This document shows positions 1 through 44,839 of a DNA stretch of 44,839 bases, piece by piece. A model generated the notes under the pieces. It saw nothing but the letters and a program-made list of their open reading frames with translations, had not been told where the DNA came from and made no database searches. Positions within the stretch are counted from its first letter, which is position 1; each line of letters starts with the position of its first letter. The stretch is from positions 1-44,839 of the forward strand of contig JAFUXZ010000135.1 of NCBI GenBank assembly GCA_017470795.1. The letters are read 5' to 3'. This DNA comes from Paludibacteraceae bacterium. GTDB taxonomy: Bacteria; Bacteroidota; Bacteroidia; Bacteroidales; Paludibacteraceae. The position numbers and the translations under genes are program-made.

Positions 1-11
1 CTCGCCAGCAC
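1..11. repeat. Terminal direct repeat, left copy (CTCGCCAGCAC)
   Basis: Exactly identical to 44829..44839. Confidence 0.9.
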
Positions 12-160: not shown

Positions 161-862
161 CTACTTCATAATCTGTGCGACGTGGTGCTCGAACCTTTTG
201 CTCAGCTTCTCCGCCACCAGTTCTTCGATCGTCTCTTGTGCTCGGCCGCTGATCATCTGCGGCACCGACAATGTCCGGACTGCTTCGATCGGCATGCGAC
301 TGCTTTCACTCTTGCGCTGGAACGGAAGAGTACTGCCACCGTTGCCGCTCGCGATGAACGTGCCCGGCCCGAGTGAAACGCGGCTGCCTTTGATGATCGT
401 CGCTTTCACGTTGTACTTCTTCGGTGGTCTGATCGTTGCCACCTCGTTGCCGCTCGCAGTGTTGATCGCTTGGCCCGGCACGCGGATCGCTCTGCTCTGC
501 TGTCCCGCCGGACGTGCCTTGGGGGACTGGTTAAAATGGGAGGGGGTGAGGGTTCTTCCTTTATACTCGAGGGAGGCACCGTCAACAGACACGCCGCTCA
601 CTTTGATCTGCGTCGCGCCCCGCTTCACTCGCGGGCCCGCTTCCTTAATTGCTCCACCGTCCACGCCGTACCACTGGCGGATCCCTTTCGATACCCACGC
701 TGGTGCTCGGCTTGTGAAGTCCGACACGGTTCGCTTGATCGCAGTCTCGCCTCCGCTCTCCAGTTTCTGGAGCTGGCGCAGCAGCTTGTCTGCGTCCTTC
801 AGGGCGACGTTAAATCCGCCGCTCGTGCGTCGAGCCGCACCGGCATAGAATAGATTGCTCAC
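161..862 (-). CDS. Putative tail-completion protein (lambda gpZ / HK97 gp10-like), last gene before the genome end
   Basis: ORF 161..886 trimmed to the GTG at 862, which follows GAAGGAGG with a 7-nt spacer. The C-terminal pattern GTFIASG..LPFQRKS..RMPIEAV..ETIEELVAEKL resembles gpZ-type proteins. This is from memory, not searched. Confidence 0.5.
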   Translation of the reverse strand: MSNLFYAGAARRTSGGFNVALKDADKLLRQLQKLESGGETAIKRTVSDFTSRAPAWVSKGIRQWYGVDGGAIKEAGPRVKRGATQIKVSGVSVDGASLEYKGRTLTPSHFNQSPKARPAGQQSRAIRVPGQAINTASGNEVATIRPPKKYNVKATIIKGSRVSLGPGTFIASGNGGSTLPFQRKSESSRMPIEAVRTLSVPQMISGRAQETIEELVAEKLSKRFEHHVAQIMK

Positions 863-1161: not shown

Positions 1162-1668
1162 TTATGGCAGGGAAGTGGTGCTTCCGGGTGGAAAAACTGC
1201 TGCGAGGTGCTGCAGAGCCTCGCCGTGCACCCGGAACGTGCGCTTCATGTACCGCTCCGGGTTGTCCTCATACTCGTCGAGCATGCCGAAGAGTGAGAAG
1301 GCGATCGGCTCCCAGCCCTGCGTGTCGATGTACCTCATCTCGAGTACGCCTTGCTCGTCCGGATCAGCCAGCAGGTTGATCATGTCCTCGAGTTCCTTCC
1401 GCAGGTGCCGCTCTTGTCTCGTCAGCTTCGAGATCTTCTGCTCGAGCTCGTCCTTCTTCTCAGTGTAGCGCTCGGCCTTGGTTGGTCTCTTCTGTCCTCT
1501 GCCGGACGGCATACCCGAGAAGTTGGCCGTCGGCAGCGTGTCTATCTCTTCCATGAGGTTTTCCAGTCTCGTGATCAGCAGGTCGATCCGGCGCTGCAGA
1601 TCCCCGTAGCTCTTCAGCTTTGCTTTGATCTCGCCGGTGTCCCTTGGCCGTGTCTGTATTTCCTGCAT
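1162..1668 (-). CDS. Putative late-gene transcriptional regulator (sigma-70 region-4-like / phage RinA-ArpU-type position)
   Basis: ORF 1162..1725 trimmed to the ATG at 1668 after AAGGAGG. It has an N-terminal coiled coil and a C-terminal LEMRYIDTQGWEPIAFSLF HTH-like segment. It sits just before the packaging end of the genome. Confidence 0.45.
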   Translation of the reverse strand: MQEIQTRPRDTGEIKAKLKSYGDLQRRIDLLITRLENLMEEIDTLPTANFSGMPSGRGQKRPTKAERYTEKKDELEQKISKLTRQERHLRKELEDMINLLADPDEQGVLEMRYIDTQGWEPIAFSLFGMLDEYEDNPERYMKRTFRVHGEALQHLAAVFPPGSTTSLP

Positions 1669-10539: not shown

Positions 10540-11438
10540 ACTCTCAGACCTCCTTCCTCTTCGGCCACTATGTCGGCGAGAGCTGCGAGGGTGCCGCCTG
10601 CGGATCCGGTGCGGATCGGTGCGCGGCGCACTGTGTTCTCGTATTTGCCCTCGAGGACTTTGGCCATGTTGTCGCTCTTCATGAGCCAGTCGAAGTCGGC
10701 TGCCCAGTTGCGGTCGTTCACTCCCTTCAGGAACGGTAACGCCTCCGCCATGTCGAATAGCTCAATGAAGGTGCCGAGGTTGCCCTTGTACTCCTTCCAG
10801 CGTGCTGCGATCGCCTTCTTGCGGTTGGCGCTCAGCTTCCGGATCCTCGGATAGCTCGGGCAGTGGTCGTGGTAGCACGTCTTGATCACTTCGTATGGGA
10901 TCGGGTCGGCTGCAGCCGGTTCCGACTCTTCAGAGGCGTTAGCCTCTGAAGTAAAAGAAATATCTACTCTACTCTTCTCTACTCTACTCTTCTCTTTGCC
11001 GTCGGTTTCTTCGCGGTCGTCCGTCGGTCTGTCCGTCGGTCGTCCGTCGGTCGTTTCTTGGTCGTCCGCTTGTTGTCCGTTGGTCTTTGCCCTCCGGAGA
11101 CGGCTGCGCTCGCGCTCGGCTTCGCGCTTCTCGACGAGCTTCCCGGCGTACTCGTACCAGTCGTGCAGCTCAAGGCCGCCTTCAGCTGATATGTCGAGAA
11201 GACCCGCATTTTTCAAGGCTTCCACGAACTCGTCAGCGTCGCCGTCCCACTGCGCTGCGCGCGCGATCGAGCGGTTGCTGATGCCTCCGAGGGAGCCGTC
11301 CGGAGCGTTGTCGAGCGACCAGAGCCAGATCAGAACGAGCATGCCGGTGACCTTTACCGGTTCGATGTCCAAAGAATCGGACACGCTGAGGACTTTCTTG
11401 TGATCTCTCAGTGTTTGGTCAATTTTTATCCATGCCAT
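10536..11438 (-). CDS. Phage replisome organizer / replication initiator (SPP1 G38P-like), with internal iterons
   Basis: The N-terminus is MAWIKIDQTLRDHKKV..LIWLWSLDNAPDGSL. An acidic linker encoded by the iteron array is followed by a conserved C-terminal domain. Confidence 0.6.
   Translation of the reverse strand: MAWIKIDQTLRDHKKVLSVSDSLDIEPVKVTGMLVLIWLWSLDNAPDGSLGGISNRSIARAAQWDGDADEFVEALKNAGLLDISAEGGLELHDWYEYAGKLVEKREAERERSRLRRAKTNGQQADDQETTDGRPTDRPTDDREETDGKEKSRVEKSRVDISFTSEANASEESEPAAADPIPYEVIKTCYHDHCPSYPRIRKLSANRKKAIAARWKEYKGNLGTFIELFDMAEALPFLKGVNDRNWAADFDWLMKSDNMAKVLEGKYENTVRRAPIRTGSAGGTLAALADIVAEEEGGLRV
11004..11089 (+). repeat. Iteron cluster C inside the replication gene: about eight GGTCGTCC-type units at 11-bp phase, candidate origin
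   Basis: Units start at 11004, 11015, 11026, 11038, 11049, 11060, 11071 and 11082. An adjacent direct repeat ctactcttct is seen at about 10968..10995. Confidence 0.8.
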
Positions 11439-15384: not shown

Positions 15385-15732
15385 ATGAGGGAGCGACTTA
15401 AACAGATCATGGAAGAGCGCGGGATCAAGTCCGCGCAGCTGGCCTCAAAGGCTGGTTTGAGCACGTCAACCGTCGCCGATATTCTCAGCGGGAAGGTGAA
15501 CGAGCTCAACGTCGGAGTGTCGAAGATCGTGAAGATCGCCGACGCGCTGGGCGTGTCAGTCGAGTTTCTTTACGATATGCCGGAACCGGAGCAGCTGCGA
15601 GCTGAGACCGAGCAGGAACGCGAGCTTCTGAGAAGTTTCCGAGCATTGAACAGTGAAGGCCGCGCGAAGGCCGTCGCATATATCGAAGATCTCGAAGACA
15701 CGGGCAAGTATCGAGGCGGTGATTCGGTATGA
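15385..15732 (+). CDS. XRE-family HTH repressor (CI-like)
   Basis: The HTH segment is IKSAQLASKAGLSTSTVADILSG. It is divergent from the early operon and ATGA-coupled to the integrase. Confidence 0.75.
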   Translation: MRERLKQIMEERGIKSAQLASKAGLSTSTVADILSGKVNELNVGVSKIVKIADALGVSVEFLYDMPEPEQLRAETEQERELLRSFRALNSEGRAKAVAYIEDLEDTGKYRGGDSV

Positions 15733-17309
15733 AAAAAGACGAGAGCCGCCAGCTGATCCGGGCGGTGATATACGCCCGGTACTCGAGCAGCGGCCAGCGC
15801 GAAGAGAGTATAGAGGGACAGATCCGGGAGTGTCGTGCCTTTGCAAAAAGGAACGGCTTCACGGTCGTTGGTGAGTACGCCGATCGGGCGCTCACCGGCA
15901 GGACAGACAGGCGGCCGGACTTCCAGCGCATGCTGCGGGACGCGGAGCGCGGAGCCTTCGAGGCGGTGCTCTGCTGGAAGATGGATCGCTTCGCCCGTAA
16001 CCGATATGACTCCGCGACGTATAAATACCGGCTGAAGAAGTGCGGCGTCCGGCTGTATTACGCAGCCGAGACGATCCCGGAGGGGCCGGAGGGGATCATT
16101 CTCGAGAGCGTTATGGAGGGCTACGCGGAGTACTACTCCGAGAACTTGTCGCAGAACGTGAAGCGCGGGAACTATGAGAGCGCGAAGGAATTGAAGACGC
16201 TCGGCCTGACGCTGCTCGGACTCAGGAAGGGAGCCGACGGCCGCTTCGAGATAGATCCGGAGACTGCGCCAGTCGTGCGCAGGATCTTCGAGGAATACGC
16301 TGCCGGGATCCCGGCGAAGGATATATACAAAAAACTGAACGACGAAGGGTATCGGACGACGCGGGGCGGCCGCTTCAACAAGAACTCGATCCGGAGGATC
16401 ATCCAGAACGAGCGGTACGCTGGCGTGTACCTCTTCAAAGATATGAGAGTTGAGGGCGGGATCCCTGCGATCGTTGACCGGGATCTCTGGGAGAAGTGCC
16501 AGAAGGTCGCGCAGCAGCATCACGTCTCGCCCGCAGCTGAGCGCGGCGTGTCGTACCTGCTGACGACGAAGCTGTTCTGCGGGCACTGCGGCGAGGCTAT
16601 GACCGGCGAGAGCGTGAGCTCGATCTACTACTATTATGTCTGTAATGGCCGCAGGGCGCACCGATGCAAAAAGAAGCGAGCCCCGAAGCAGTGGATCGAG
16701 GATCTGGTCGTCCGGGAGCTGGCGGCCCTGATCCACTCCGACGAGTTTATCGAGGCCGTGGCCGACAGCTGCGTCGAGTACCAGCAGCGCACCCGGGACA
16801 CGGCAGATCTGGACGCGCTCGAACGACGGCAGCGGGAGAACGAGCAGGCGATCCGGAACACTCTCGCAGCGATCGACGCCGGGATCATCACGGACAGCGT
16901 GAAGTCTCACCTCGTAGTGCTGGAGGCCGAGCGGGCGGATCTTGAACGTGGGATCGCGCAGCTGCTCATAGCTGAGCCGGACGTCGACCGGGAGCAGGTG
17001 ATCTACTTCCTCGAGCGGTTCCGGGACGGGGATCTTGACGATCCCGGGTACCGGCAGTTCTTGGTCGACACGTTCCTGAACGCTGCGTACCTATACGACG
17101 ACGACCGGATCCTGCTGGTGCTGAACTATACGCAGGAAGGCGAGCGGGTGACCTTGGAGCTGGCCGAAGCGGCTGCCGAGGACGACGGCGTGAAGATTTC
17201 GTGTTTCGCGCCGTCAGGCCCGCCAAATGGCGCGAATACGAAAAAAGCGCGGGAGCTGGTTCTCCACTTTGTAGAGAAGGCGGTCGCCGTGCTGATAGAA
17301 TTGCGCTGA
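15729..17309 (+). CDS. Large serine recombinase (integrase)
   Basis: Resolvase catalytic N-terminus VIYARYSSSGQREESIEGQ, followed by a recombinase domain, then a zinc ribbon (CGHCG...YYYYVCNGR) and a coiled coil. Confidence 0.85.
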   Translation: MKKDESRQLIRAVIYARYSSSGQREESIEGQIRECRAFAKRNGFTVVGEYADRALTGRTDRRPDFQRMLRDAERGAFEAVLCWKMDRFARNRYDSATYKYRLKKCGVRLYYAAETIPEGPEGIILESVMEGYAEYYSENLSQNVKRGNYESAKELKTLGLTLLGLRKGADGRFEIDPETAPVVRRIFEEYAAGIPAKDIYKKLNDEGYRTTRGGRFNKNSIRRIIQNERYAGVYLFKDMRVEGGIPAIVDRDLWEKCQKVAQQHHVSPAAERGVSYLLTTKLFCGHCGEAMTGESVSSIYYYYVCNGRRAHRCKKKRAPKQWIEDLVVRELAALIHSDEFIEAVADSCVEYQQRTRDTADLDALERRQRENEQAIRNTLAAIDAGIITDSVKSHLVVLEAERADLERGIAQLLIAEPDVDREQVIYFLERFRDGDLDDPGYRQFLVDTFLNAAYLYDDDRILLVLNYTQEGERVTLELAEAAAEDDGVKISCFAPSGPPNGANTKKARELVLHFVEKAVAVLIELR

Positions 17310-17415: not shown

Positions 17416-19062
17416 TTACTTCTTGACCGACGCCATGGCTGCGATCGTCTTCGGGCCCACGAGGCCGTCCGCTTCCTTCGCGCCGAACATGTCGGTCTGG
17501 AACTTCTTGACCGCTGCGAGGGTCTTGTCGCCGTAGATCCCGTCGGCAGTTTCGCCCTGTGGGAGGGCTCCATACCAGACGAGGAACTCCTGCATCAGTG
17601 CGACTCTGTTCGAGATCTCGCCGTGTCTGATGATCACCGACGCAGCGTTCACGGATCCGATGTACCTGTGCACGCGCTTGAAGCTCGCGTACTTCTTGTC
17701 GGTCAGATCCCTGACGCGGATCGAGTTGTTCCACTTCTTGGAGTTTCTGACGTTGTCGTCGCCTCCGCCAGCCTCCACGAGCTTGCCGCCTCCGATGTAG
17801 AGCGCGACGTGCGTGTCGCTGCATAAGACGTCGCCCGCCTTCAGCTTGGACTTCGCAGGCTTGCCGAGATTCTTGAAGAGCGTCGACTTGTCATAGCCGC
17901 GGCCCTTGTGGAAGCCCCACGAGGTGCCCTTGCTGCAGAGCTTCATGGCTGCCTGATCGCAGCCGCCGTGAGCCCATGCTGCACCGACGAACGGATTGCA
18001 GCAGTAGGTTCTCTCATAGTCTACGATGCCGGCCTTCTTCTTGCTCTTCGGCTGCGTTTTGCAGAAGAAGCAGCCGTTGTGGTGGGCGTCCTTGCCGTGG
18101 CCATAGTGGAAGCGGTTGTCGCCAGCGATCCATACGGCCCAGCGGATCGCGTCCGCGATCACCTCGGCGTTCGTTTTCACGAGCTTCATGGTCGGGAGCT
18201 TTCCGGTGTAGGCTTTCTTTTCCTGCTTAGGGCTCAGGATCTCGTTCACGCGCTTCTGGACGGCGTTGTAGTCATAGCCGCACTGAGTGAGCGCCAGCTT
18301 CCTGCTGTCGCCGCTGCCCCAGCCGCCTGCGATCACTTCGCGCGCCAGTTCGTCCACGGACTTCTTCGCCGGTGTCGTCAGGCCGTTCCCCGTATAGCGG
18401 ATCAGCACCTTGAGTCTGCTCACATACCTGCCCGCGAGCTTCCTGTCGGCTCTTATGTCGTCGGCCTTGTTTTTGCAGCGTGTACTGTCGGAGACTTTGC
18501 CGTCTCCCATGAGTAGGATGAGGTGCTGGAACTCGGTGCCGGTGAACAGGCCGCCGATGTCGCCCGGCTGCACCTTCTCCTTCGGGATCACCTTGCCGCC
18601 GTTCCGGATCACTTTGATCTCCTTGATCTTCAGAGCCTTCTGCGCGATCTTCAGCGCGTCCGCATCCGTCTTGGCCTTCAGGATCTTCTCCATAGTGCCA
18701 TTGTCGAGCACGCCGCAGTTGCATGGGATCGGCAGCCCGCCGTGATGCCAGCAGGCGATCACCCAGCCGATGCACTGCCAGCCGAGGTTCTTGCCTCCGT
18801 GCGGGTGGCACTTTGCGCACTCGTGGCCGTATGGCTCCGTCCAGAAGATGTACCGGTAGTCCTCCGCGGCGGTCTTGATAGCCCACGCTCTGATGTTCTG
18901 AATGATCAGTTCGCGGCAGCAGAGCAGCCGGTTGACTTCCGTCTGGATCTCTTCCGGGTTGTAGCCCTTCTTCCGGAGGGCGTCGACTCTGGCCTGTCCG
19001 CTGCCCCAGTCCCCTGCGATCACCTCGCGGGCGATCGCCATTGTCTTCTTGTCTGTCGCCAT
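17416..19062 (-). CDS. Multidomain cell-wall hydrolase: two copies of (Cpl-7-like repeat + Cys-peptidase/NlpC-P60-like domain) plus a C-terminal PG_binding_1 domain
   Basis: ORF trimmed to the ATG at 19062 after AAGGAGG. AREVIAG-WGSG occurs twice. The C-terminus DGIYGDKTLAAVKKFQ...DGLVGPKT is a peptidoglycan-binding motif. Confidence 0.7.
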   Translation of the reverse strand: MATDKKTMAIAREVIAGDWGSGQARVDALRKKGYNPEEIQTEVNRLLCCRELIIQNIRAWAIKTAAEDYRYIFWTEPYGHECAKCHPHGGKNLGWQCIGWVIACWHHGGLPIPCNCGVLDNGTMEKILKAKTDADALKIAQKALKIKEIKVIRNGGKVIPKEKVQPGDIGGLFTGTEFQHLILLMGDGKVSDSTRCKNKADDIRADRKLAGRYVSRLKVLIRYTGNGLTTPAKKSVDELAREVIAGGWGSGDSRKLALTQCGYDYNAVQKRVNEILSPKQEKKAYTGKLPTMKLVKTNAEVIADAIRWAVWIAGDNRFHYGHGKDAHHNGCFFCKTQPKSKKKAGIVDYERTYCCNPFVGAAWAHGGCDQAAMKLCSKGTSWGFHKGRGYDKSTLFKNLGKPAKSKLKAGDVLCSDTHVALYIGGGKLVEAGGGDDNVRNSKKWNNSIRVRDLTDKKYASFKRVHRYIGSVNAASVIIRHGEISNRVALMQEFLVWYGALPQGETADGIYGDKTLAAVKKFQTDMFGAKEADGLVGPKTIAAMASVKK

Positions 19063-19073
19063 GGCATACCTCC

Positions 19074-20552
19074 TTAGTTGTAGCAGTGGTTCATGTCCGT
19101 GTTGCCTTTGACGCCGTCGACCTTCCCGGTGCTCGTGTACTGCCATAAAAGGAAGGAGCCCTTGTACTGGCACTCCTTATAGTACTGAGCACACCAGACC
19201 TTGTACGGCAGCTTGGCCATGTCGAGCTGGTTGTTCAGCCACGAGGTTGAGGCGTAGATCATAGCCTTCGCGCCGGTCTTCTCGATCTCGTCGCAGAAGC
19301 CCTTGATCGCTGCCGTCCTCTTAGCCTTTGACAGCACGGTGTCGTTGGCCCTGCCCGGGCGTCTCTTGCCCTTCTCGGTGTAGAAGACGTTCTCGCTGTC
19401 TACTCCGATAGGGTAGGCCAGCTCCACGCCCGCCTTCTTGATCAGCTCGAGAGTGTAGCGTGCTTCCTCCCGGCCTTCGGCCTCAGTGATCGCCTCGGTG
19501 AAGAAGTACACACCGAGGGCGAGCCCGGCCTTCTTCGCGCCGGTGATGTGGTTTATAAACATGTCGTCCTGATTCAGCTTCGCCGTCGAGCAGCCGCGGT
19601 ATCCGCAGCGGACGATCACGCCCTTGACGCCCGCCTTCTTGACTTTGGCCCAGTCGATCGCCGACTGGAACTCGCTGACGTCGATCACGGTGTGCTTCCC
19701 GGAGGGCATGGCTGCTGCTGCGGGTTTGCTGGGCGTCTTGTTCGGAGGTTTCAGCGAATTGATGATCGCCTGCGCCTTCTTCTTGCTGTTAGGCCCGAAG
19801 ATCCCGTCGACCGTCAGGCTGTAGGTCGCCTGATAGTCCATGATTGCCGCCTCGGTCTTGCTTCCGACGTCGCCGTCGACCGAGAGCTTGGCATTGATGC
19901 ACCAGTTCAGGAAGGTCTGCACGGCCTTCGCGTCGGCTCCCTTGGTGCCGTTCTTCACGGTTCCGGACGGGAGCTTCCCGGTGTACGGAGTTGTCGGCTT
20001 GTAGGTGGTGACCTGCTTGCCGAGCCTCTCGACGATCCAGACCTTGGCCACGCAGCCCTTCATTGATTTCTCGTAGCTGTACCAGCCGTCGTGATCTCTT
20101 CCGCCGGAGTCCTTGCAGTAGAACATGTGGAGCCCGTTCTTAATCTTGTAGCCGGTGAAGGCCACGTAGTGGCCGCCAGCCGTCCAGCGCGTCCCGTTTG
20201 GCGCCTTGTTCGAGTTGAACAGGATAATGCCGATGCGGTTGCCCTTGTTCAGTTCCTTGAAGGCCACACTCATTGGATCCGACCACACGCGCACGACCGT
20301 CTTGTGCCCGAGGTGCTTCAGCGTCTCGGTGATGCCGTTCCACGTTGTGCCCTGATTTCTGATAGCGAAGCCCTGTTTGATCATCCACGGGCGCAGGCTT
20401 TCAGGTGTCCAGTTTTTGTATCTGTCCTGCTCCATGGCCACGTGTACGCATGCGCAGCACCCGCAGCCGTTACCTCCGAAGGACGAGGACTTGACCGGGT
20501 ATGGTTTACTTGACCACCTGCTGTTCAGCTGCTTCCAGATCTTCTTGTTCAT
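19074..20552 (-). CDS. Endolysin: papain-like Cys peptidase, PG_binding_1 and GH25 muramidase domains
   Basis: ATG at 20552 after GAGGAGG. Cys/His pair in GCGCCAC...GGHYVAF. VDGDVGSKTEAAIMDYQ is the binding domain. VIDVSEFQSAIDWAKVKKAGVKGVIVR is GH25-like. Confidence 0.8.
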   Translation of the reverse strand: MNKKIWKQLNSRWSSKPYPVKSSSFGGNGCGCCACVHVAMEQDRYKNWTPESLRPWMIKQGFAIRNQGTTWNGITETLKHLGHKTVVRVWSDPMSVAFKELNKGNRIGIILFNSNKAPNGTRWTAGGHYVAFTGYKIKNGLHMFYCKDSGGRDHDGWYSYEKSMKGCVAKVWIVERLGKQVTTYKPTTPYTGKLPSGTVKNGTKGADAKAVQTFLNWCINAKLSVDGDVGSKTEAAIMDYQATYSLTVDGIFGPNSKKKAQAIINSLKPPNKTPSKPAAAAMPSGKHTVIDVSEFQSAIDWAKVKKAGVKGVIVRCGYRGCSTAKLNQDDMFINHITGAKKAGLALGVYFFTEAITEAEGREEARYTLELIKKAGVELAYPIGVDSENVFYTEKGKRRPGRANDTVLSKAKRTAAIKGFCDEIEKTGAKAMIYASTSWLNNQLDMAKLPYKVWCAQYYKECQYKGSFLLWQYTSTGKVDGVKGNTDMNHCYN

Positions 20553-20874
20553 CGTCTTCCTCCTCTTCATCTTCCGCTTCTGCTTCTGCTTCGTCCTCTT
20601 CGCCTTCGTCGAAGAAGTAGTCGCCGACGTAGCCGGCCTTCTTCTCAGCTTTCAGCTGACGGGTGAGGCCGGTGCCAGCGCAGGCCTCGTCTGTGAAGTC
20701 GTTGTTGTACCAGAACGCGATGGCCGCAGCAGCGACCGTGAAAATGTAGGAGACGATCCTGTACACGGTGTTGGCCGTTTCGTTTCCGAAGTCCGGCTCT
20801 CCGACCTGAGAGATCGCCTGATTAATGATTGCGACCGCCAGCAGCGCCGTCCTGATCTTGGTTCCTCTGTTCAT
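20506..20874 (-). CDS. Holin, SPP1 family-like, with an acidic C-terminal tail
   Basis: MNRGTKIRTALLAVAIINQ...FWYNNDFTDEA matches the SPP1-holin pattern. Two transmembrane segments are present. Confidence 0.65.
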   Translation of the reverse strand: MNRGTKIRTALLAVAIINQAISQVGEPDFGNETANTVYRIVSYIFTVAAAAIAFWYNNDFTDEACAGTGLTRQLKAEKKAGYVGDYFFDEGEEDEAEAEAEDEEEEDDEQEDLEAAEQQVVK

Positions 20875-21265: not shown

Positions 21266-22366
21266 CTAAAGTGCCGCTCCTTTGCGCTTAAAAATGACGT
21301 TTTCCGAGATCCATTTCTGGAGCCCGTAAGTGCTGCAGTGCTTCATGAGTCCGAAGTAGCTCTGCATAGTTGAGTCCACCGCCTCGAAGTCTATGAGGCC
21401 CTGCTCGTACTCCTTGGCGATGTAGAACATGCGGGCCTTCATCTTCCTGACCGACTTGCGCGTCAGCTTCCGGTAGCCCGGATAGATGCGGCAGCCGACG
21501 AAGGTGATCCCGCGTTTGACGAGTCCGATCGTGGTCTTGCTGTTTAGATCCAGATGCAGTCGGTCGTTCAGGAAGATCTCGATCAGTTCCCGGCACTCGT
21601 TCAGCCGCTTCACGTCCGAGCTCAGCAACACCATGTCGTCCATGTACCGGACGAAGAAGTGCTCGCGGAGCTCGTGCTTCACATACTGGTCGAGCTCGTT
21701 CAGGCATACGTTCGCAAGCATCTGGCTTGTCAGGTTTCCAATCGGCATGCCGACCTCGAAGAGCCGCTCCCACGGCGGCACCTCGTCGGCGTTCTTGCCC
21801 GGAGGCAGGCCGAAGGGTGTGTGGTCGCAGTTCACGATCTCGTCCATGAGCCAGTGGAAGCCGTCCTCGTCCGGGTATTTCCTGCGCATGATGCTGAGAA
21901 GGATCTCGTGATCCACGCGGTAGAAATACTTCGAGACGTCCAGCTTCAGGTAGTACCACGGCTCGGGCTTGCGATCGACGAGGGTGCACCAGTCCTGCAG
22001 CTTGTCAGCTGCTCGCGTGGTTCCTTTGCCGACACGGCAGCCGTAGCTGTGGAAGATCATGCCGTTGTCGAGCTCGCCATTGATCTGCAAATAAATCGCC
22101 CACTGGACGACGCGATCCCTGAAGCCCAGAGCCATGACGAGCCGCTTCTTTGGCTCGTAGACGTAGAACTCCCGGTACCTGCCGACCTCGTAGGCGTGCC
22201 AGAGCAGATCGTTCTGTATGCTGATCAGTTCTTCCTCGAGGTTTGCGCTGAAGGCAGCCACGTCGTCGCGGTACCACTTCTCCTTACAGGCGTTGTGATA
22301 TGCTTCCAGCAGGTTCTCCCACGAGGCGATGCGCTCCAGAAGGGAAGGCTTTACGGTTTCGAGCAT
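21266..22366 (-). CDS. DGR reverse transcriptase
   Basis: ORF 21266..22576 trimmed to the ATG at 22366 after AGGAGG. It carries the DGR-hallmark motif PIGNLTSQ and the catalytic motif YMDD. It lies adjacent to the TR. Confidence 0.9.
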   Translation of the reverse strand: MLETVKPSLLERIASWENLLEAYHNACKEKWYRDDVAAFSANLEEELISIQNDLLWHAYEVGRYREFYVYEPKKRLVMALGFRDRVVQWAIYLQINGELDNGMIFHSYGCRVGKGTTRAADKLQDWCTLVDRKPEPWYYLKLDVSKYFYRVDHEILLSIMRRKYPDEDGFHWLMDEIVNCDHTPFGLPPGKNADEVPPWERLFEVGMPIGNLTSQMLANVCLNELDQYVKHELREHFFVRYMDDMVLLSSDVKRLNECRELIEIFLNDRLHLDLNSKTTIGLVKRGITFVGCRIYPGYRKLTRKSVRKMKARMFYIAKEYEQGLIDFEAVDSTMQSYFGLMKHCSTYGLQKWISENVIFKRKGAAL

Positions 22367-22750
22367 TTGCCCGTCCTCCTTTTGCGTTTGGTTTTGGTGG
22401 CTTCGCGTGTGACAATCCATTGACCGCAGCAGAAGATCCGCAGCCGCCACCGTGCTGCAGTCCCCTGCAGGTCTTCTCCCGTATGAGGGACTGGCCAGTC
22501 TGCGCGGGTTGCACGTCGCCCCGGTTGTCCGGCTGCGGCGTGCGATCATCTTTAGCTTTTCAGCTGGGAAGTACACCCCTTTGACTCTTATGTTCCTGCG
22601 AGGCCTTGACCTTCAGGTCTAACGAATAGAGCCGGAGCGGAGCGGAAGCCGATGTTCGTGTTCGTGTTCGAGCGAGCGTTGTTGCCGTTCAGATAGAACA
22701 GACCTGCGTTCGTGCCGTTGTTCCAGTTGCCCCCGCGATACACGCAGCGC
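22367..22750 (-). ncRNA. DGR template RNA: TR (22636..22750) plus a 269-nt spacer leading to the RT gene
   Basis: No credible coding potential was found. This is inferred from canonical DGR organisation. Confidence 0.6.
22636..22750 (-). repeat. DGR template repeat (TR)
   Basis: 115 bp collinear with the VR, with no indels. In the VR frame it reads RCVYRGGNWNNGTNAGLFYLNGNNARSNTNTNIGFRSA, which is rich in AAC codons. Confidence 0.92.
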
Positions 22751-22779
22751 CTCCTTATACGGCATACTCCCCACGTCGC

Positions 22780-23124
22780 TCACTCGTCGGATCTGATCCA
22801 CCCGCCGAGCATGCGTCCGATTTCATTGAGCTCTTTGCTCCATACTTCGTGCAGTCCCGGAGAGATCAGACGATCCTCCGGGCTGACAGCTGTGTCGACA
22901 AAATTTCGCAGCACGTCCAGCTCGATGTCCATTTCGGCCTGAAGCTGGCGCCGCTTTTGTCCGCGCGACCGGTTGGCCTGAATACATAGCCGCAGCATAT
23001 TGCTGTAGGCTTGGTTCAGCTGTTCCCGGTAGACGAACTTCTCCGGCTTGCGCATGTTCTTGGTGCGCTCGCCGGTGCGGATCATGGATCGAACGATGTG
23101 CTGCCGCAGTTGTAACGTATCCAT
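22780..23124 (-). CDS. avd: DGR accessory variability determinant (Avd, four-helix-bundle type)
   Basis: 114-aa basic helical protein located between the target gene and the TR. AAGGAG RBS. Confidence 0.75.
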   Translation of the reverse strand: MDTLQLRQHIVRSMIRTGERTKNMRKPEKFVYREQLNQAYSNMLRLCIQANRSRGQKRRQLQAEMDIELDVLRNFVDTAVSPEDRLISPGLHEVWSKELNEIGRMLGGWIRSDE

Positions 23125-23148
23125 GTTTTGCTCCTTCTTCGCGGGGTT

Positions 23149-23172
23149 GGGGCGGCTTTTGCGAGCCGCCCC
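23149..23172 (-). promoter_or_regulatory. GC-rich hairpin downstream of the VR (9-bp stem, 6-nt loop)
   Basis: ggggcggct / tttgcg / agccgcccc. It starts 24 nt after the target stop codon and 44 nt after the end of TR/VR homology. Confidence 0.6.
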
Positions 23173-23195
23173 GGTCAGATTTTCAGATTGCCAGA

Positions 23196-24299
23196 TTAAC
23201 CGATCCCCTCAACATAAGCGGAGCGGAAGCCGAAGGACGCGATCGTGTTCGAGCGAGCGCTGTAGCCGTCCAGATAGAACAGACCTGCGCCCGCGCCGTA
23301 GCCCCAGCAGCCCCCGCGAAACACGCAGCGCTCGCTGATATTGTGGTTCCAGTACATGTAGTCGCCTTCGTAGTCAGCGGCGGCAGCGCCTTCGTCAGGG
23401 AGCAGCGCGAGCGCTCTCAGGAGCAGCTTCGCAGCGTCGCTGATTGAGCTATCGGCGGTTACGTCGCCGAAGAGGCAGCCCTTGTAGTCGCTCTGAGGAC
23501 TGGCGATGCTTGTGCTGTACTTCCATTTGTTGCTTGCAAAGTCGAGCTTCACGGTCGTGCCGGTCGTGTTCTGTACGGAGTCGCTAATAGAGCTGGTCGG
23601 ATCCACGAGTGTTCCGTCGGAAGCCTTGATTGCTTTCCACGCCGAGCTGGTTGAGTTCTGCGGATTGTCCGGATCCGCCGCGTTGTTGTTCTCGAGGATC
23701 TGCAGCTCGCCCCAAACGAGACGTATGCCGCCGATCCACTCGTTGACGTTGCCGTTCAGATCTGCGATGCCTCCGAGTGTCTTGTCGTGGTACCACTCGA
23801 CAGGGCCGGTGCCGGTGGCGACTCTCTGGATCCTGCCGCTGCCGTCGCGAGCCATTGACGGGATCGCTCTGTAGCCGGTCTCGCGGCTGTCCTTGCCGTA
23901 GTTGTTATTGCCGTAAGGCATGAAGCTGTTCTTTTTGCACCAGAGTGCGATCGCGGCCCACTCGGCTGCAGTCATAAGGTGCCAGCCGTTCCCCTTGGCT
24001 TCGCAGCGTGCGAGCGAGTTGTCGAAGTTGATGCTGTTCGCCGGATCCTGCGCTGGCAGGGAGTAGGCCACACCGTTGTGGATGCAGTTCTGATACTTTG
24101 AGCACCAGAAGCCGTCGATCTCGCGGCCGTTCACGAAGAAGGCCGGATGCACCGAAGCGTCGTCGGTGTTCAGCACGTCGCTGAGCTTAAACTTCGGGAT
24201 GTAGACCATGACCGAAGGCAGCTCGGTCTCGTCGAGGATCACGCTGTTGTTCGGTGCGATCATCTGCACCGCCAGATTTGTAAGGTCAAAATTTGCCAT
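23196..24299 (-). CDS. DGR target: C-type-lectin/FGE-sulfatase-fold receptor-binding protein with a C-terminal VR
   Basis: GNGWHLMTAAEWAAIALW and NVNEWIGG are FGE/CLec-like motifs. The C-terminus RGGCWGYGAGAGLFYLDGYSARSNTIASFGFR is the VR. It is the last gene of the tail-fibre block. Confidence 0.85.
   Translation of the reverse strand: MANFDLTNLAVQMIAPNNSVILDETELPSVMVYIPKFKLSDVLNTDDASVHPAFFVNGREIDGFWCSKYQNCIHNGVAYSLPAQDPANSINFDNSLARCEAKGNGWHLMTAAEWAAIALWCKKNSFMPYGNNNYGKDSRETGYRAIPSMARDGSGRIQRVATGTGPVEWYHDKTLGGIADLNGNVNEWIGGIRLVWGELQILENNNAADPDNPQNSTSSAWKAIKASDGTLVDPTSSISDSVQNTTGTTVKLDFASNKWKYSTSIASPQSDYKGCLFGDVTADSSISDAAKLLLRALALLPDEGAAAADYEGDYMYWNHNISERCVFRGGCWGYGAGAGLFYLDGYSARSNTIASFGFRSAYVEGIG
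23217..23331 (-). repeat. DGR variable repeat (VR)
   Basis: 98/115 identical to the TR. All 17 differences fall at TR coding-strand adenines. Confidence 0.92.
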
Positions 24300-44828: not shown

Positions 44829-44839
44829 CTCGCCAGCAC
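44829..44839. repeat. Terminal direct repeat, right copy (CTCGCCAGCAC)
   Basis: Identical to 1..11. Confidence 0.9.

Follow-up and report, generated by a model that had tools for sequence, protein, structure and literature searches.

The closest described relative of the element studied here is the diversity-generating retroelement (DGR) of the Faecalibacterium phage FP_Lagaffe (Lagaffevirus lagaffe, NC_047911), which has already been published (Cornuault et al. 2018, PMC5883640; PMC11792537). Its order runs from baseplate J/I genes and three small ORFs through a target gene, avd, the template repeat (TR) and the reverse transcriptase (RT) gene to small ORFs and lysis genes, and another target, gp40, lies at a remote site in that phage and carries a variable repeat (VR) of its own. 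The same order is seen in the prototype DGR, the mtd-avd-TR-brt cassette of Bordetella phage BPP-1, which tail genes precede and lysis genes follow, and homing in that system requires a hairpin after VR (PMC3240598). For the diversified protein, the closest solved homologue is TaqVP, a DGR variable protein encoded on the chromosome of the bacterium Thermus aquaticus (5vf4).

In the window (the whole 44,839-nt stretch of DNA that was analysed), we re-found the four elements that had been predicted, all on the minus strand and in the order of BPP-1: a target gene (23196..24299), avd (22780..23124), TR (22636..22750) and an RT gene (21266..22366). Every defining feature of a DGR that is open to in-silico testing was present, and the region is very probably a canonical, evidently active DGR of a Lagaffe-related phage that is temperate and has a contractile tail, operating by the mechanism proposed below. 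The synteny of tail genes, target, avd, TR, RT, small ORFs and lysis genes is the same in BPP-1 and Lagaffe. The original prediction also placed the cassette between tail-fibre and lysis genes. Lysis genes do lie downstream, after small ORFs, but on the other side we found baseplate J/I homologues followed by three small ORFs of unknown function, and no recognisable tail-fibre genes.

The resemblance to Lagaffe extends from gene order and orientation to the sequence itself, with 72% nucleotide identity over the whole cassette, 79% amino acid identity for the RT and 65% for the target (Lagaffe gp26), and TR length, the threefold ATCTG flank and the hairpin distance are all equal. The two genomes are colinear and have an end sequence in common, yet no more than 49% of the window can be aligned, with an identity of about 70%, and the phage therefore belongs to another species than Lagaffe, and possibly to another genus. 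Further differences are an IS30-type transposase/integrase in Lagaffe at the place of the large serine recombinase encoded in the window, lysis genes that are unlike those of the window, and the single VR of the window. No tRNAs were found in the window. Because no close copy occurs among GTDB species representatives (the best is a Lachnospiraceae MAG with 75% RT identity), the host is presumed, by relation to Lagaffe only, to be a member of the gut Clostridia. Since the nearest described element is published and has the same layout, this DGR belongs to a known kind. General knowledge of DGRs is unchanged by it, the sole possibly new element being an [A/C]TCTG array at the VR flank, and its value is as a clean natural example, in an uncultured phage related to a Faecalibacterium phage, of a DGR that is evidently active.

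TR is non-coding, 115 nt long and contains 27 adenines; aligned to it, VR (23217..23331, also 115 nt) spans codons 324-361 of the 367-codon target. The two differ at 17 of 115 positions, and all 17 mismatches fall at TR adenines (hypergeometric P ~1e-13) and at codon position 1 or 2. Read in the VR frame, TR contains ten AAC codons, and 16 codons would be re-randomised, so that as many as 2.4e15 proteins are accessible and a stop codon cannot arise. A scan of the window with TR, adenine positions ignored, found no second or remote VR, and the window holds no further copy of TR. Nor does it hold a separate homologue of Lagaffe gp40, the sole homologue being the primary target itself. The 3' end of VR is an adenine-free, GC-rich block of 17 nt (TCGGCTTCCGCTCCGCT, 23217..23233) that is identical in TR (22636..22652), where the last adenine lies at 22653. 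This block is the counterpart of the (G/C)14 segment of BPP-1; it is invariant in all strains, and beyond it the similarity between TR and VR ends abruptly.

Unlike BPP-1, the window has no IMH/IMH* similarity past the GC block. Instead, the position of the BPP-1 IMH is taken by a VR-specific flank of three AATCTG units at 8-nt spacing (23176..23198), which overlaps the TAA stop codon; no other such cluster occurs in the window. In relatives, the array consists of 3-5 [A/C]TCTG units, spaced 7-8 nt and located between VR and the hairpin, and it is present at every VR 3' flank examined. Family means are 2.57 copies after VR and 0.00 after TR, against a background of 0.14, and in 2.1 Mb all 36 of 36 array clusters lie at VR 3' flanks. 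At the remote second VR of Lagaffe, the array falls within coding sequence and is not accompanied by a hairpin. We tentatively propose that, in this RT clade, the array takes over the function of the BPP-1 IMH, marking the DGR acceptor and telling VR from TR. If so, the targets of DGRs could be predicted from sequence even where they are remote, and the array might serve as a guide for retargeting these gut-phage DGRs. Full-text literature searches for an earlier description of the ATCTG array gave only a PCR primer, and periodic [A/C]TCTG arrays at VR flanks are possibly undescribed so far.

A GC-rich hairpin or cruciform (GGGGCGGCT-CGCAAA-AGCCGCCCC, 23149..23172) lies 45 nt past VR, compared with 4-34 bp in the published set. 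It has a 9-bp stem and a 6-nt loop, where BPP-1 has a 4-nt GRNA tetraloop; its stems covary across relatives, and it is the counterpart of the hairpin on which homing depends in BPP-1. The target-site elements are thus all represented: an adenine-free block at the 3' end of both repeats and a GC-rich inverted repeat downstream of VR, as in BPP-1, together with unrelated VR and TR flanks. The hairpin was also considered as an intrinsic terminator; a terminator scan makes no call, and the hairpin is not terminator-like because no T-run follows it.

RNA structure around TR was analysed with RNAalifold and pair counting on 32 relatives, and strong covariation across these relatives supports the helices. 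Overall, 89.8% of cells are paired, compared with 65% in shuffles and 29-49% when the helices are slid; double-change cells number 190 versus 53, and the score was reached by none of 500 shuffles. A long-range duplex like the 'cPRT Stop' joins an upstream strand in the avd-TR gap (GGGGAGUAUGCC, 22761..22772) to an Sp strand (GGUGUACUUCCC, 22566..22577); it was predicted by RNAalifold unaided, is paired in 96.5% of cells and shows double changes in 6 of 8 pairs. In BPP-1, by contrast, the upstream strand lies inside avd. The template:primer duplex is formed by a TR-flank strand (22628..22633), which begins 2 nt past the TR/VR similarity, and by 22583..22588, with compensatory changes in 5/5 counted pairs. 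The latter strand, AGAGUC, together with AAA (22580..22582) makes up the Sp primer strand (22580..22588), in which AAAGG is nearly invariant in the 32 relatives and the AAA would supply the candidate priming adenosine or adenosines, by comparison with Sp A56 of BPP-1 (PMC6182149).

Two further helices lie in the spacer. Stem-loop 1 (22596..22616; 85.7% paired, double changes in 5 of 7 pairs) is a candidate Avd-binding stem-loop, likened to that of BPP-1 (bioRxiv 10.1101/2023.10.23.563531). Stem-loop 2 (AGCU-GAAA-AGCU, followed by AAAGA; 22549..22565) shows double changes in 4/4 pairs and a conserved adenosine run, and it matches the stem-loop and A-minor adenosines of BPP-1. The window and BPP-1 have in common the template:primer duplex, the long-range stop duplex and the stem-loop plus adenosines, which confirms the BPP-1 RNA architecture in a distant Bacillota-phage clade, and the exact coordinates of each cis element should be useful for reconstituting or retargeting a gut-phage DGR. 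The spacer is longer than in BPP-1 (269 versus 140 nt) and has no match in Rfam at E <= 1. Its distal, non-coding part (22367..22548) varies between strains, L082 and L088 having substitutions there as well as indels of 14 nt and 1 nt; 22548..22790 is essentially invariant among strains.

By homology to BPP-1, these elements suggest how the cassette may work. The avd-TR-spacer-RT transcript would fold so that 22583..22588 pairs with the sequence immediately 3' of TR, placing an adenosine of the AAA run as a cis-primer. RT-Avd would then make cDNA of TR, starting within a few nucleotides of 22636, misincorporating opposite the 27 TR adenines and ending at the long-range duplex 22761..22772 / 22566..22577. 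The cDNA would replace VR, to which the adenine-free GC block, the VR-specific flank and the GC hairpin would direct its homing, and the predicted outcome is re-randomisation of the 16 codons, located in the C-terminal lectin-fold surface of the target.

A solved homologue settles the fold of the target protein. The protein exceeds the cut-off of Pfam FGE-sulfatase (PF03781; 27.6 versus 23.3 bits), and its residues 27-363 align with residues 34-384 of TaqVP (E 6e-49), a full-length homology that includes the C-terminal RGG-W...GFR frame holding the variable residues. Together with the TR/VR comparison, these matches bear out the earlier description of a 367-aa C-type-lectin/FGE-fold protein ending in a variable repeat, and they place the target among the CLec-fold DGR variable proteins of the FGE-sulfatase subclass (TvpA/TaqVP type). 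Before the TaqVP-like fold begins, the protein has only some 26 residues, and the N-terminal domains of Mtd are absent. BLASTP detected no sequence similarity between the target and Mtd (E 3.4), and because the likeness is at the level of fold only, we did not class it in the Mtd family. From homology to TaqVP, the variable residues are predicted to form one solvent-exposed binding surface.

By analogy, gene position and fold make the target most likely the distal host-binding protein of the phage. It is rather unlikely, though a serious alternative, that the target is diversified but is something other than a receptor-binding tail tip, for instance a decoration protein, a binder of mucus or glycans, or a protein that is not part of the virion. 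Its PHROG family (2889, E 8e-133) has no annotated function, the resemblance to Mtd does not reach the sequence level, TaqVP is a bacterial protein with no ligand assigned to it, and the second target of Lagaffe, gp40, sits among replication genes and not tail genes. Hoc-like capsid proteins, moreover, are diversified in other Faecalibacterium phages (PMC5883640). However, the target is encoded in a phage tail/baseplate module as its last gene; J/I homologues and then three small ORFs come directly before it, and tail fibres occupy this slot in P2-like phages. The order is also that of BPP-1, whose receptor-binding protein is Mtd, and with VR set aside, no gene of the block diverges more among strains than the target (pi 0.089 versus about 0.03). 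High divergence is typical of host-recognition genes.

For diversification in nature, the population evidence is unusually direct. We collected ten public metagenome contigs with an Avd identical to that of the window, and strain counts refer to n=11. TR is identical at 115/115 positions in the 11 strains, and VR is variable at 27/27 TR-adenine columns but at only 4/88 other columns (Fisher P 2e-22), in agreement with the anticipated polymorphism at TR-adenine positions. Across the 11 VRs, 52% of A-sites are mutated; in-vitro misincorporation by bRT-Avd is reportedly also 52%, equal to this level. Even between 99.9%-identical genomes (over 4.5 kb) with an identical template, the VRs differ at template adenines: L083 differs from the window at just 2 of 4530 nt, each of them a VR A-site, and L090 at 5 nt, 3 of them at VR A-sites, while 21 of the 28 differences of L086 lie inside VR. 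Because such genomes differ only or mainly at VR adenines, the events must be very recent. Among the three near-identical genomes, the VR differences are confined to two adjacent codons. Whole-tract replacement would not yield this pattern, but repair in patches, selection, or a consensus assembled from mixed populations might.

Transfer from TR to VR is also visible in L002, whose TR substitutions recur in its own VR; in the comparison with L002, TR is the most conserved element of the cassette. More broadly, adenine-biased TR/VR pairs were found in 66 of 80 viral and 36 of 55 genomic relatives. TR and the Sp core have zero diversity among strains and the neighbouring stretches vary, which therefore indicates purifying selection. 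Against this background, it is improbable that the cassette, intact in sequence, is a silent relic in this genome and that the strain variation records past activity of the lineage. In its favour, the RT of strain L089 is split into two ORFs, the VR of the relative L005 has decayed, with indels and non-A mismatches, and cultures of Lagaffe_CP yielded no DGR signal at the level of reads (PMC11792537). In the window, however, all ORFs are intact, as are the catalytic residues and the RNA helices, and neither the near-identical genomes that differ mainly at VR adenines nor the lack of diversity in TR and the Sp core fits a silent element.

Avd and the RT were both recognised by family. The 114-aa product of avd (accessory variability determinant; pI 9.6) scores 86.4 bits against the NCBIfam equivalog model DivGenRetAVD (cut-off 80), matches Pfam bAvd (E 2e-16) and belongs to PHROG 3206, 'Avd protein of DGR', so that the basic Avd-like protein of the original prediction can be called an Avd. 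By sequence it had no match among solved structures, and its pairwise similarity to BPP-1 bAvd is limited to the C-terminal GRxLGxWI motif, with membership clear at the profile level.

The RT (366 aa; Pfam RVT_1) carries both motifs that had been reported for it, IGNLTSQ (21722..21742), which fits the DGR signature [I/V/L]GxxxSQ, and the catalytic YxDD as YMDD (21635..21646). Its best PDB match is BPP-1 bRT (8ub7, E 4e-42; group II and retron-type RTs 5e-12 or weaker), with 32% amino acid identity over 95% of its length, and it belongs to PHROG 1423 (E 1e-135), its full-length phage homologues being DGR RTs. In the alignment, the bRT residues K29, F66, R74, I181, Q187, D138 and D215/D216 are conserved, covering both catalysis and adenine mutagenesis, in which R74 and I181 have a role (bioRxiv 10.1101/2020.04.29.068544). 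It is scarcely credible that this is an RT of a different kind, from a retron, a group II intron or a defence system, and that the repeats are an ordinary duplication homogenised by gene conversion: RefSeq-type annotations often label such RTs 'retron-type' and there are weak matches to group II, retron and DRT models, but these fall far under curated cut-offs (group II 96.9 bits versus 300; retron 43 versus 235), the bRT match scores 147.6 bits versus 48.6 or less for other classes, the motif is IGNLTSQ and not QGxxxSP, and gene conversion can yield neither one-directional, adenine-restricted changes nor a TR that stays constant while VR is hypervariable. A PADLOC search for a defence-system RT returned just generic RT and weak DRT matches.

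For the DGR RT itself, translation is likely to begin at the ATG that follows, at 8 nt, a Shine-Dalgarno sequence AAGGAGG. The reading frame upstream is open to GTG 22576, and the RefSeq annotation for Lagaffe uses a start of this kind, giving 436 aa; no such product is on record. We regard the extension as non-coding because it carries the 14-nt and 1-nt indels, which are out of frame, among strains and because gene callers give 366 aa in relatives, and it overlaps the conserved Sp RNA helices.

The region is a canonical diversity-generating retroelement (DGR) that closely copies the structure of the cassette published for Faecalibacterium phage FP_Lagaffe (Lagaffe), the nearest deposited phage, with which it aligns end to end at 72% nucleotide identity (79% identity for the RT protein and 65% for the target). 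The four minus-strand elements of the original prediction were all recovered: a 367-aa target ORF (23196..24299), a 114-aa avd ORF (22780..23124), a non-coding template repeat (TR) with a clean core of 115 nt (22636..22750), and an RT ORF that begins with an ATG at 22366, preceded by AAGGAGG, and ends at 21266. Repeat comparison places the corresponding 115-nt core of the variable repeat (VR) at 23217..23331 on the same strand, at the 3′ end of the target gene, and a repeat finder returned 22636-22759 versus 23217-23340 as the single long direct repeat of the region. A search of the window for an additional TR copy, also with adenine positions disregarded, returned none. TR and VR differ at 17 of 115 nt, and all 17 mismatches fall at TR adenines, of which there are 27 (hypergeometric P 1e-13), and at first or second codon positions in the frame of the target, where the TR reads with ten AAC codons. 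The 27 adenines allow 1.8e16 DNA variants and the 16 variable codons 2.4e15 protein variants, and no substitution can reach a stop codon.

The RT matches Pfam RVT_1 and contains IGNLTSQ, the DGR signature, as well as a catalytic YMDD. Assignment to another RT class finds little to recommend it: among solved structures, group II intron- and retron-type RTs score no higher than 48.6 bits, compared with 147.6 bits (E 4e-42) for the RT of the prototype DGR of Bordetella phage BPP-1 (bRT; 8ub7), by far the best relative; the protein lies far under every cut-off of curated group II, retron, and DRT RT models; and PADLOC returned only generic RT and weak DRT matches. In the alignment to 8ub7, bRT residues K29, F66, R74, I181, and Q187 are kept together with the catalytic aspartates, and R74 and I181 have been shown to favor adenine mutagenesis (bioRxiv 10.1101/2020.04.29.068544). 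Full-length homologs of the RT among deposited phages all come from known DGR phages (Lagaffe, BPP-1/BMP-1, VHML, Mushu, crAss-like phages, and Shimadzu). The accessory variability determinant (Avd) is basic (pI 9.6) and scores 86.4 bits against an NCBI Avd equivalog cut-off of 80. The DGR-type RT and the basic Avd-like protein proposed from the sequence are both borne out. The target exceeds the Pfam FGE-sulfatase cut-off and is homologous along its entire length to TaqVP, the Thermus aquaticus DGR variable protein (5vf4, E 6e-49). Because it has no pairwise similarity to the BPP-1 target Mtd (E 3.4), the target is a fold-level analog of Mtd and not a member of the Mtd family.

To assess activity in natural populations we used assemblies in place of reads, taking ten independent metagenome contigs that encode exactly the same Avd, which together with the window give eleven genomes. 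Across these, the TR is identical at 115 of 115 positions, and in the VR 27 of 27 columns at TR adenines are variable, versus 4 of 88 others (Fisher P 2e-22), one of the four being due to a 3-nt deletion; the predicted restriction of variation to TR-adenine positions thus holds on assemblies. Nucleotide diversity is 0 in both the TR and the avd-TR gap; the VR reaches 0.147, and most neighboring genes lie at 0.014-0.036. The closest pairs make the same point: a contig differing from the window at two sites in 4,530 nt (L083) has both at VR adenine sites, a second (L090) has three of five there, and in a third (L086) 21 of 28 differences lie within the VR. Taking the eleven VRs together, 52% of their adenine sites carry a mutation, a natural figure also shaped by selection and equal to the 52% misincorporation frequency of bRT-Avd in vitro. 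In a more distant relative (L002), both TR substitutions recur at the matching VR positions, as expected for TR-to-VR transfer. Of the IMG/VR relatives, 66 of 80 have adenine-biased TR/VR pairs, as do 36 of 55 genomic relatives, with the same layout in nearly all.

Among the three genomes that are about 99.9% identical (the window, L083, and L090), 24 of the 27 VR adenine-site states are common, and the VR differences are confined to two adjacent codons, 336-337 (window 23290..23294). This pattern would not arise if fresh cDNA replaced the whole tract; patchy conversion or repair, selection acting on point changes, or assembly of mixed populations into a consensus may each be its source.

The RNA around the TR has the architecture known from BPP-1, in which a template:primer duplex joins the TR 3′ flank to the spacer and terminates at the adenosine used for priming, the spacer pairs at long range with a segment upstream of the TR (the “cPRT Stop” duplex), adenosines follow a short stem-loop, and Avd-binding stem-loops stand directly after the TR (PMC6182149; bioRxiv 10.1101/2023.10.23.563531). 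RNAalifold, run without guidance on an alignment of the avd-end/TR/spacer region from 32 relatives, predicted exactly these nested helices on the minus strand: a template:primer duplex (22628-22633 with 22583-22588), next to an A-run holding the candidate priming adenosine (22580-22582), a stop duplex (22761-22772 with 22566-22577), a first stem-loop (22596-22616), and a second (22549-22565) of the form AGCU-GAAA-AGCU followed by AAAGA. By pair counting, 89.8% of pairs in the helices are standard, compared with 65% after shuffling and 29-49% with partners slid; cells with changes on both sides number 190 against 53 expected, and the helix score was matched by none of 500 shuffles. The template:primer duplex begins 2 nt past the end of TR/VR similarity, and the similarity may stop there because cDNA synthesis would start at that point. 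Among the eleven strains, 22548..22790 is essentially invariant and the distal spacer (22367..22547) accumulates substitutions and out-of-frame indels. A 2024 preprint reports these RNA elements to be conserved in 207 DGRs, and the helices confirm the BPP-1 mechanism for the clade of the window while adding nothing new in kind; the population evidence and the map of cis elements are useful as confirmation, and the cassette as a whole will not surprise a specialist.

The distal half of the spacer exists as two alleles among these strains (contigs L082 and L088 compared with the window), with 51 differences including a 14-nt indel; the proximal 90 nt are invariant, and TR, Avd, and proximal spacer are identical across both alleles. 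An in-frame extension of the RT ORF to GTG 22576 was rejected as coding, since the distal-spacer indels among the eleven strains are out of frame. The open stretch in the window (22367..22576) resembles that of Lagaffe, whose RefSeq RT (gp28; 437 aa, 23260..24573 of L148, the Lagaffe locus) starts upstream, within the spacer RNA; this public annotation is probably over-extended.

On the DNA target side, the last 17 nt of the VR form a GC-rich block free of adenine, identical in the TR copy and paralleled in the BPP-1 VR, and the flank from this block to a GC-rich hairpin reads TAATCTGGCAATCTGAAAATCTG. The hairpin (23149..23172, minus strand) differs in stem sequence among relatives with pairing kept; it has a 6-nt loop and lies 45 nt from the VR, whereas the published consensus is a GRNA loop of 4 nt, located at 4-34 bp (PMC3240598). 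A terminator was considered and rejected for it, as no T-run follows and the terminator scan did not call it. Between VR and hairpin lies an array of [A/C]TCTG units (23176..23198, minus strand) spaced by 7-8 nt, with three to five copies in the clade. In 61 viral relatives the 60 nt 3′ of the VR contain a mean of 2.57 copies, compared with 0.00 after the TR and 0.14 in background, and the pattern was seen again in an independent genomic set. The VR-flank cluster is the sole one with at least three copies on either strand of the window. Across 135 loci (2.1 Mb), 33 of 36 such clusters lie directly 3′ of a detected VR and the remaining three after a decayed VR or one cut by a contig end, so that all 36 mark a VR. 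The remote second VR of Lagaffe has five copies next to it, inside the gp40 coding sequence and with the hairpin absent; the array therefore tracks VRs and not gene ends. The array sits where BPP-1 has its IMH, which itself reads TCTG..CCTG..CTTG, and a search of the accessible literature turned up no earlier account of the array. We tentatively propose that it might serve the RT clade of the window as an acceptor-site signal. Arrays also occur in a related locus (L001) at 768..804 and 10919..10939.

The window is the genome of a contractile-tailed phage, encoding terminase, portal, protease, sheath, tape measure, baseplate hub/J/I, the DGR, holin, two cell-wall hydrolases, and a large serine recombinase. 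Its completeness, with ends at a cos-type packaging site, is suggested by an 11-nt terminal direct repeat, CTCGCCAGCAC, at 1..11 and 44829..44839, by Lagaffe genome ends at the same points with the junction GGGCTCGCCAGCACCGCAGGC common to both; a lambda-like terminase is consistent with this. The two genomes are colinear over 49% of the window at about 70% identity, and the phage is a new species-level relative of Lagaffe, present in many public metagenomes, SRR12529323, ERZ27256825, and ERZ12289766 among the samples that carry it. The published Lagaffe DGR comprises RT, Avd, and an FGE/Mtd-like target, with excess read variability over the VR (Cornuault et al. 2018, PMC5883640); a 2024 study then described a second VR, located in gp40, and found adenine-specific variation when 18 cognate genomes were compared (PMC11792537). 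The window lacks such a second target. As originally proposed, the DGR precedes the lysis cassette; the genes before it, taken then for tail fibers, are instead the end of the baseplate/tail module, with three small ORFs of unassigned function separating a P2-I-like baseplate gene from the target. The target is probably a receptor-binding protein, given its distal position in the tail module, a gene order shared with BPP-1, where Mtd binds the receptor, and its divergence among strains outside the VR, the highest of any gene in the block.

That part of the target gene (23332..24299) has a diversity of 0.089, compared with about 0.03 in neighbors, among strains with identical Avd and TR, and falls into two allele groups with ~130 differing sites, which suggests that the body of the binding protein is exchanged as a module on top of DGR variation. 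Signs of decay are seen in three related loci: an RT broken into ORFs of 234 and 125 aa (L089, 4333..5433), a VR with an in-frame 3-nt deletion (L091, ~1354..1465), and a VR with indels and non-adenine mismatches against its own TR (L005, 5036..5147). RTs of the clade (35-60% identity) also turn up on contigs assigned to Nanoarchaeia, Planctomycetaceae, and Saccharibacteria MAGs (L098, L129, L138, and L139), either mis-binned phage contigs or a sign of a wider host range. Where Lagaffe has an IS30-type transposase/integrase, the window has the large serine recombinase (Resolvase, Recombinase, and Zn-ribbon; 15729..17309, plus strand), and the integration module has therefore been swapped between related phages. 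The lysis cassette (17416..20874, minus strand) comprises two large hydrolases, one with GH25, PG_binding_1, and a C39-like peptidase, the other with two CW_7, NlpC/P60, and PG_binding_1, and an SPP1-type holin with an extremely acidic C-terminal tail (EEDEAEAEAEDEEEEDDEQEDLE).
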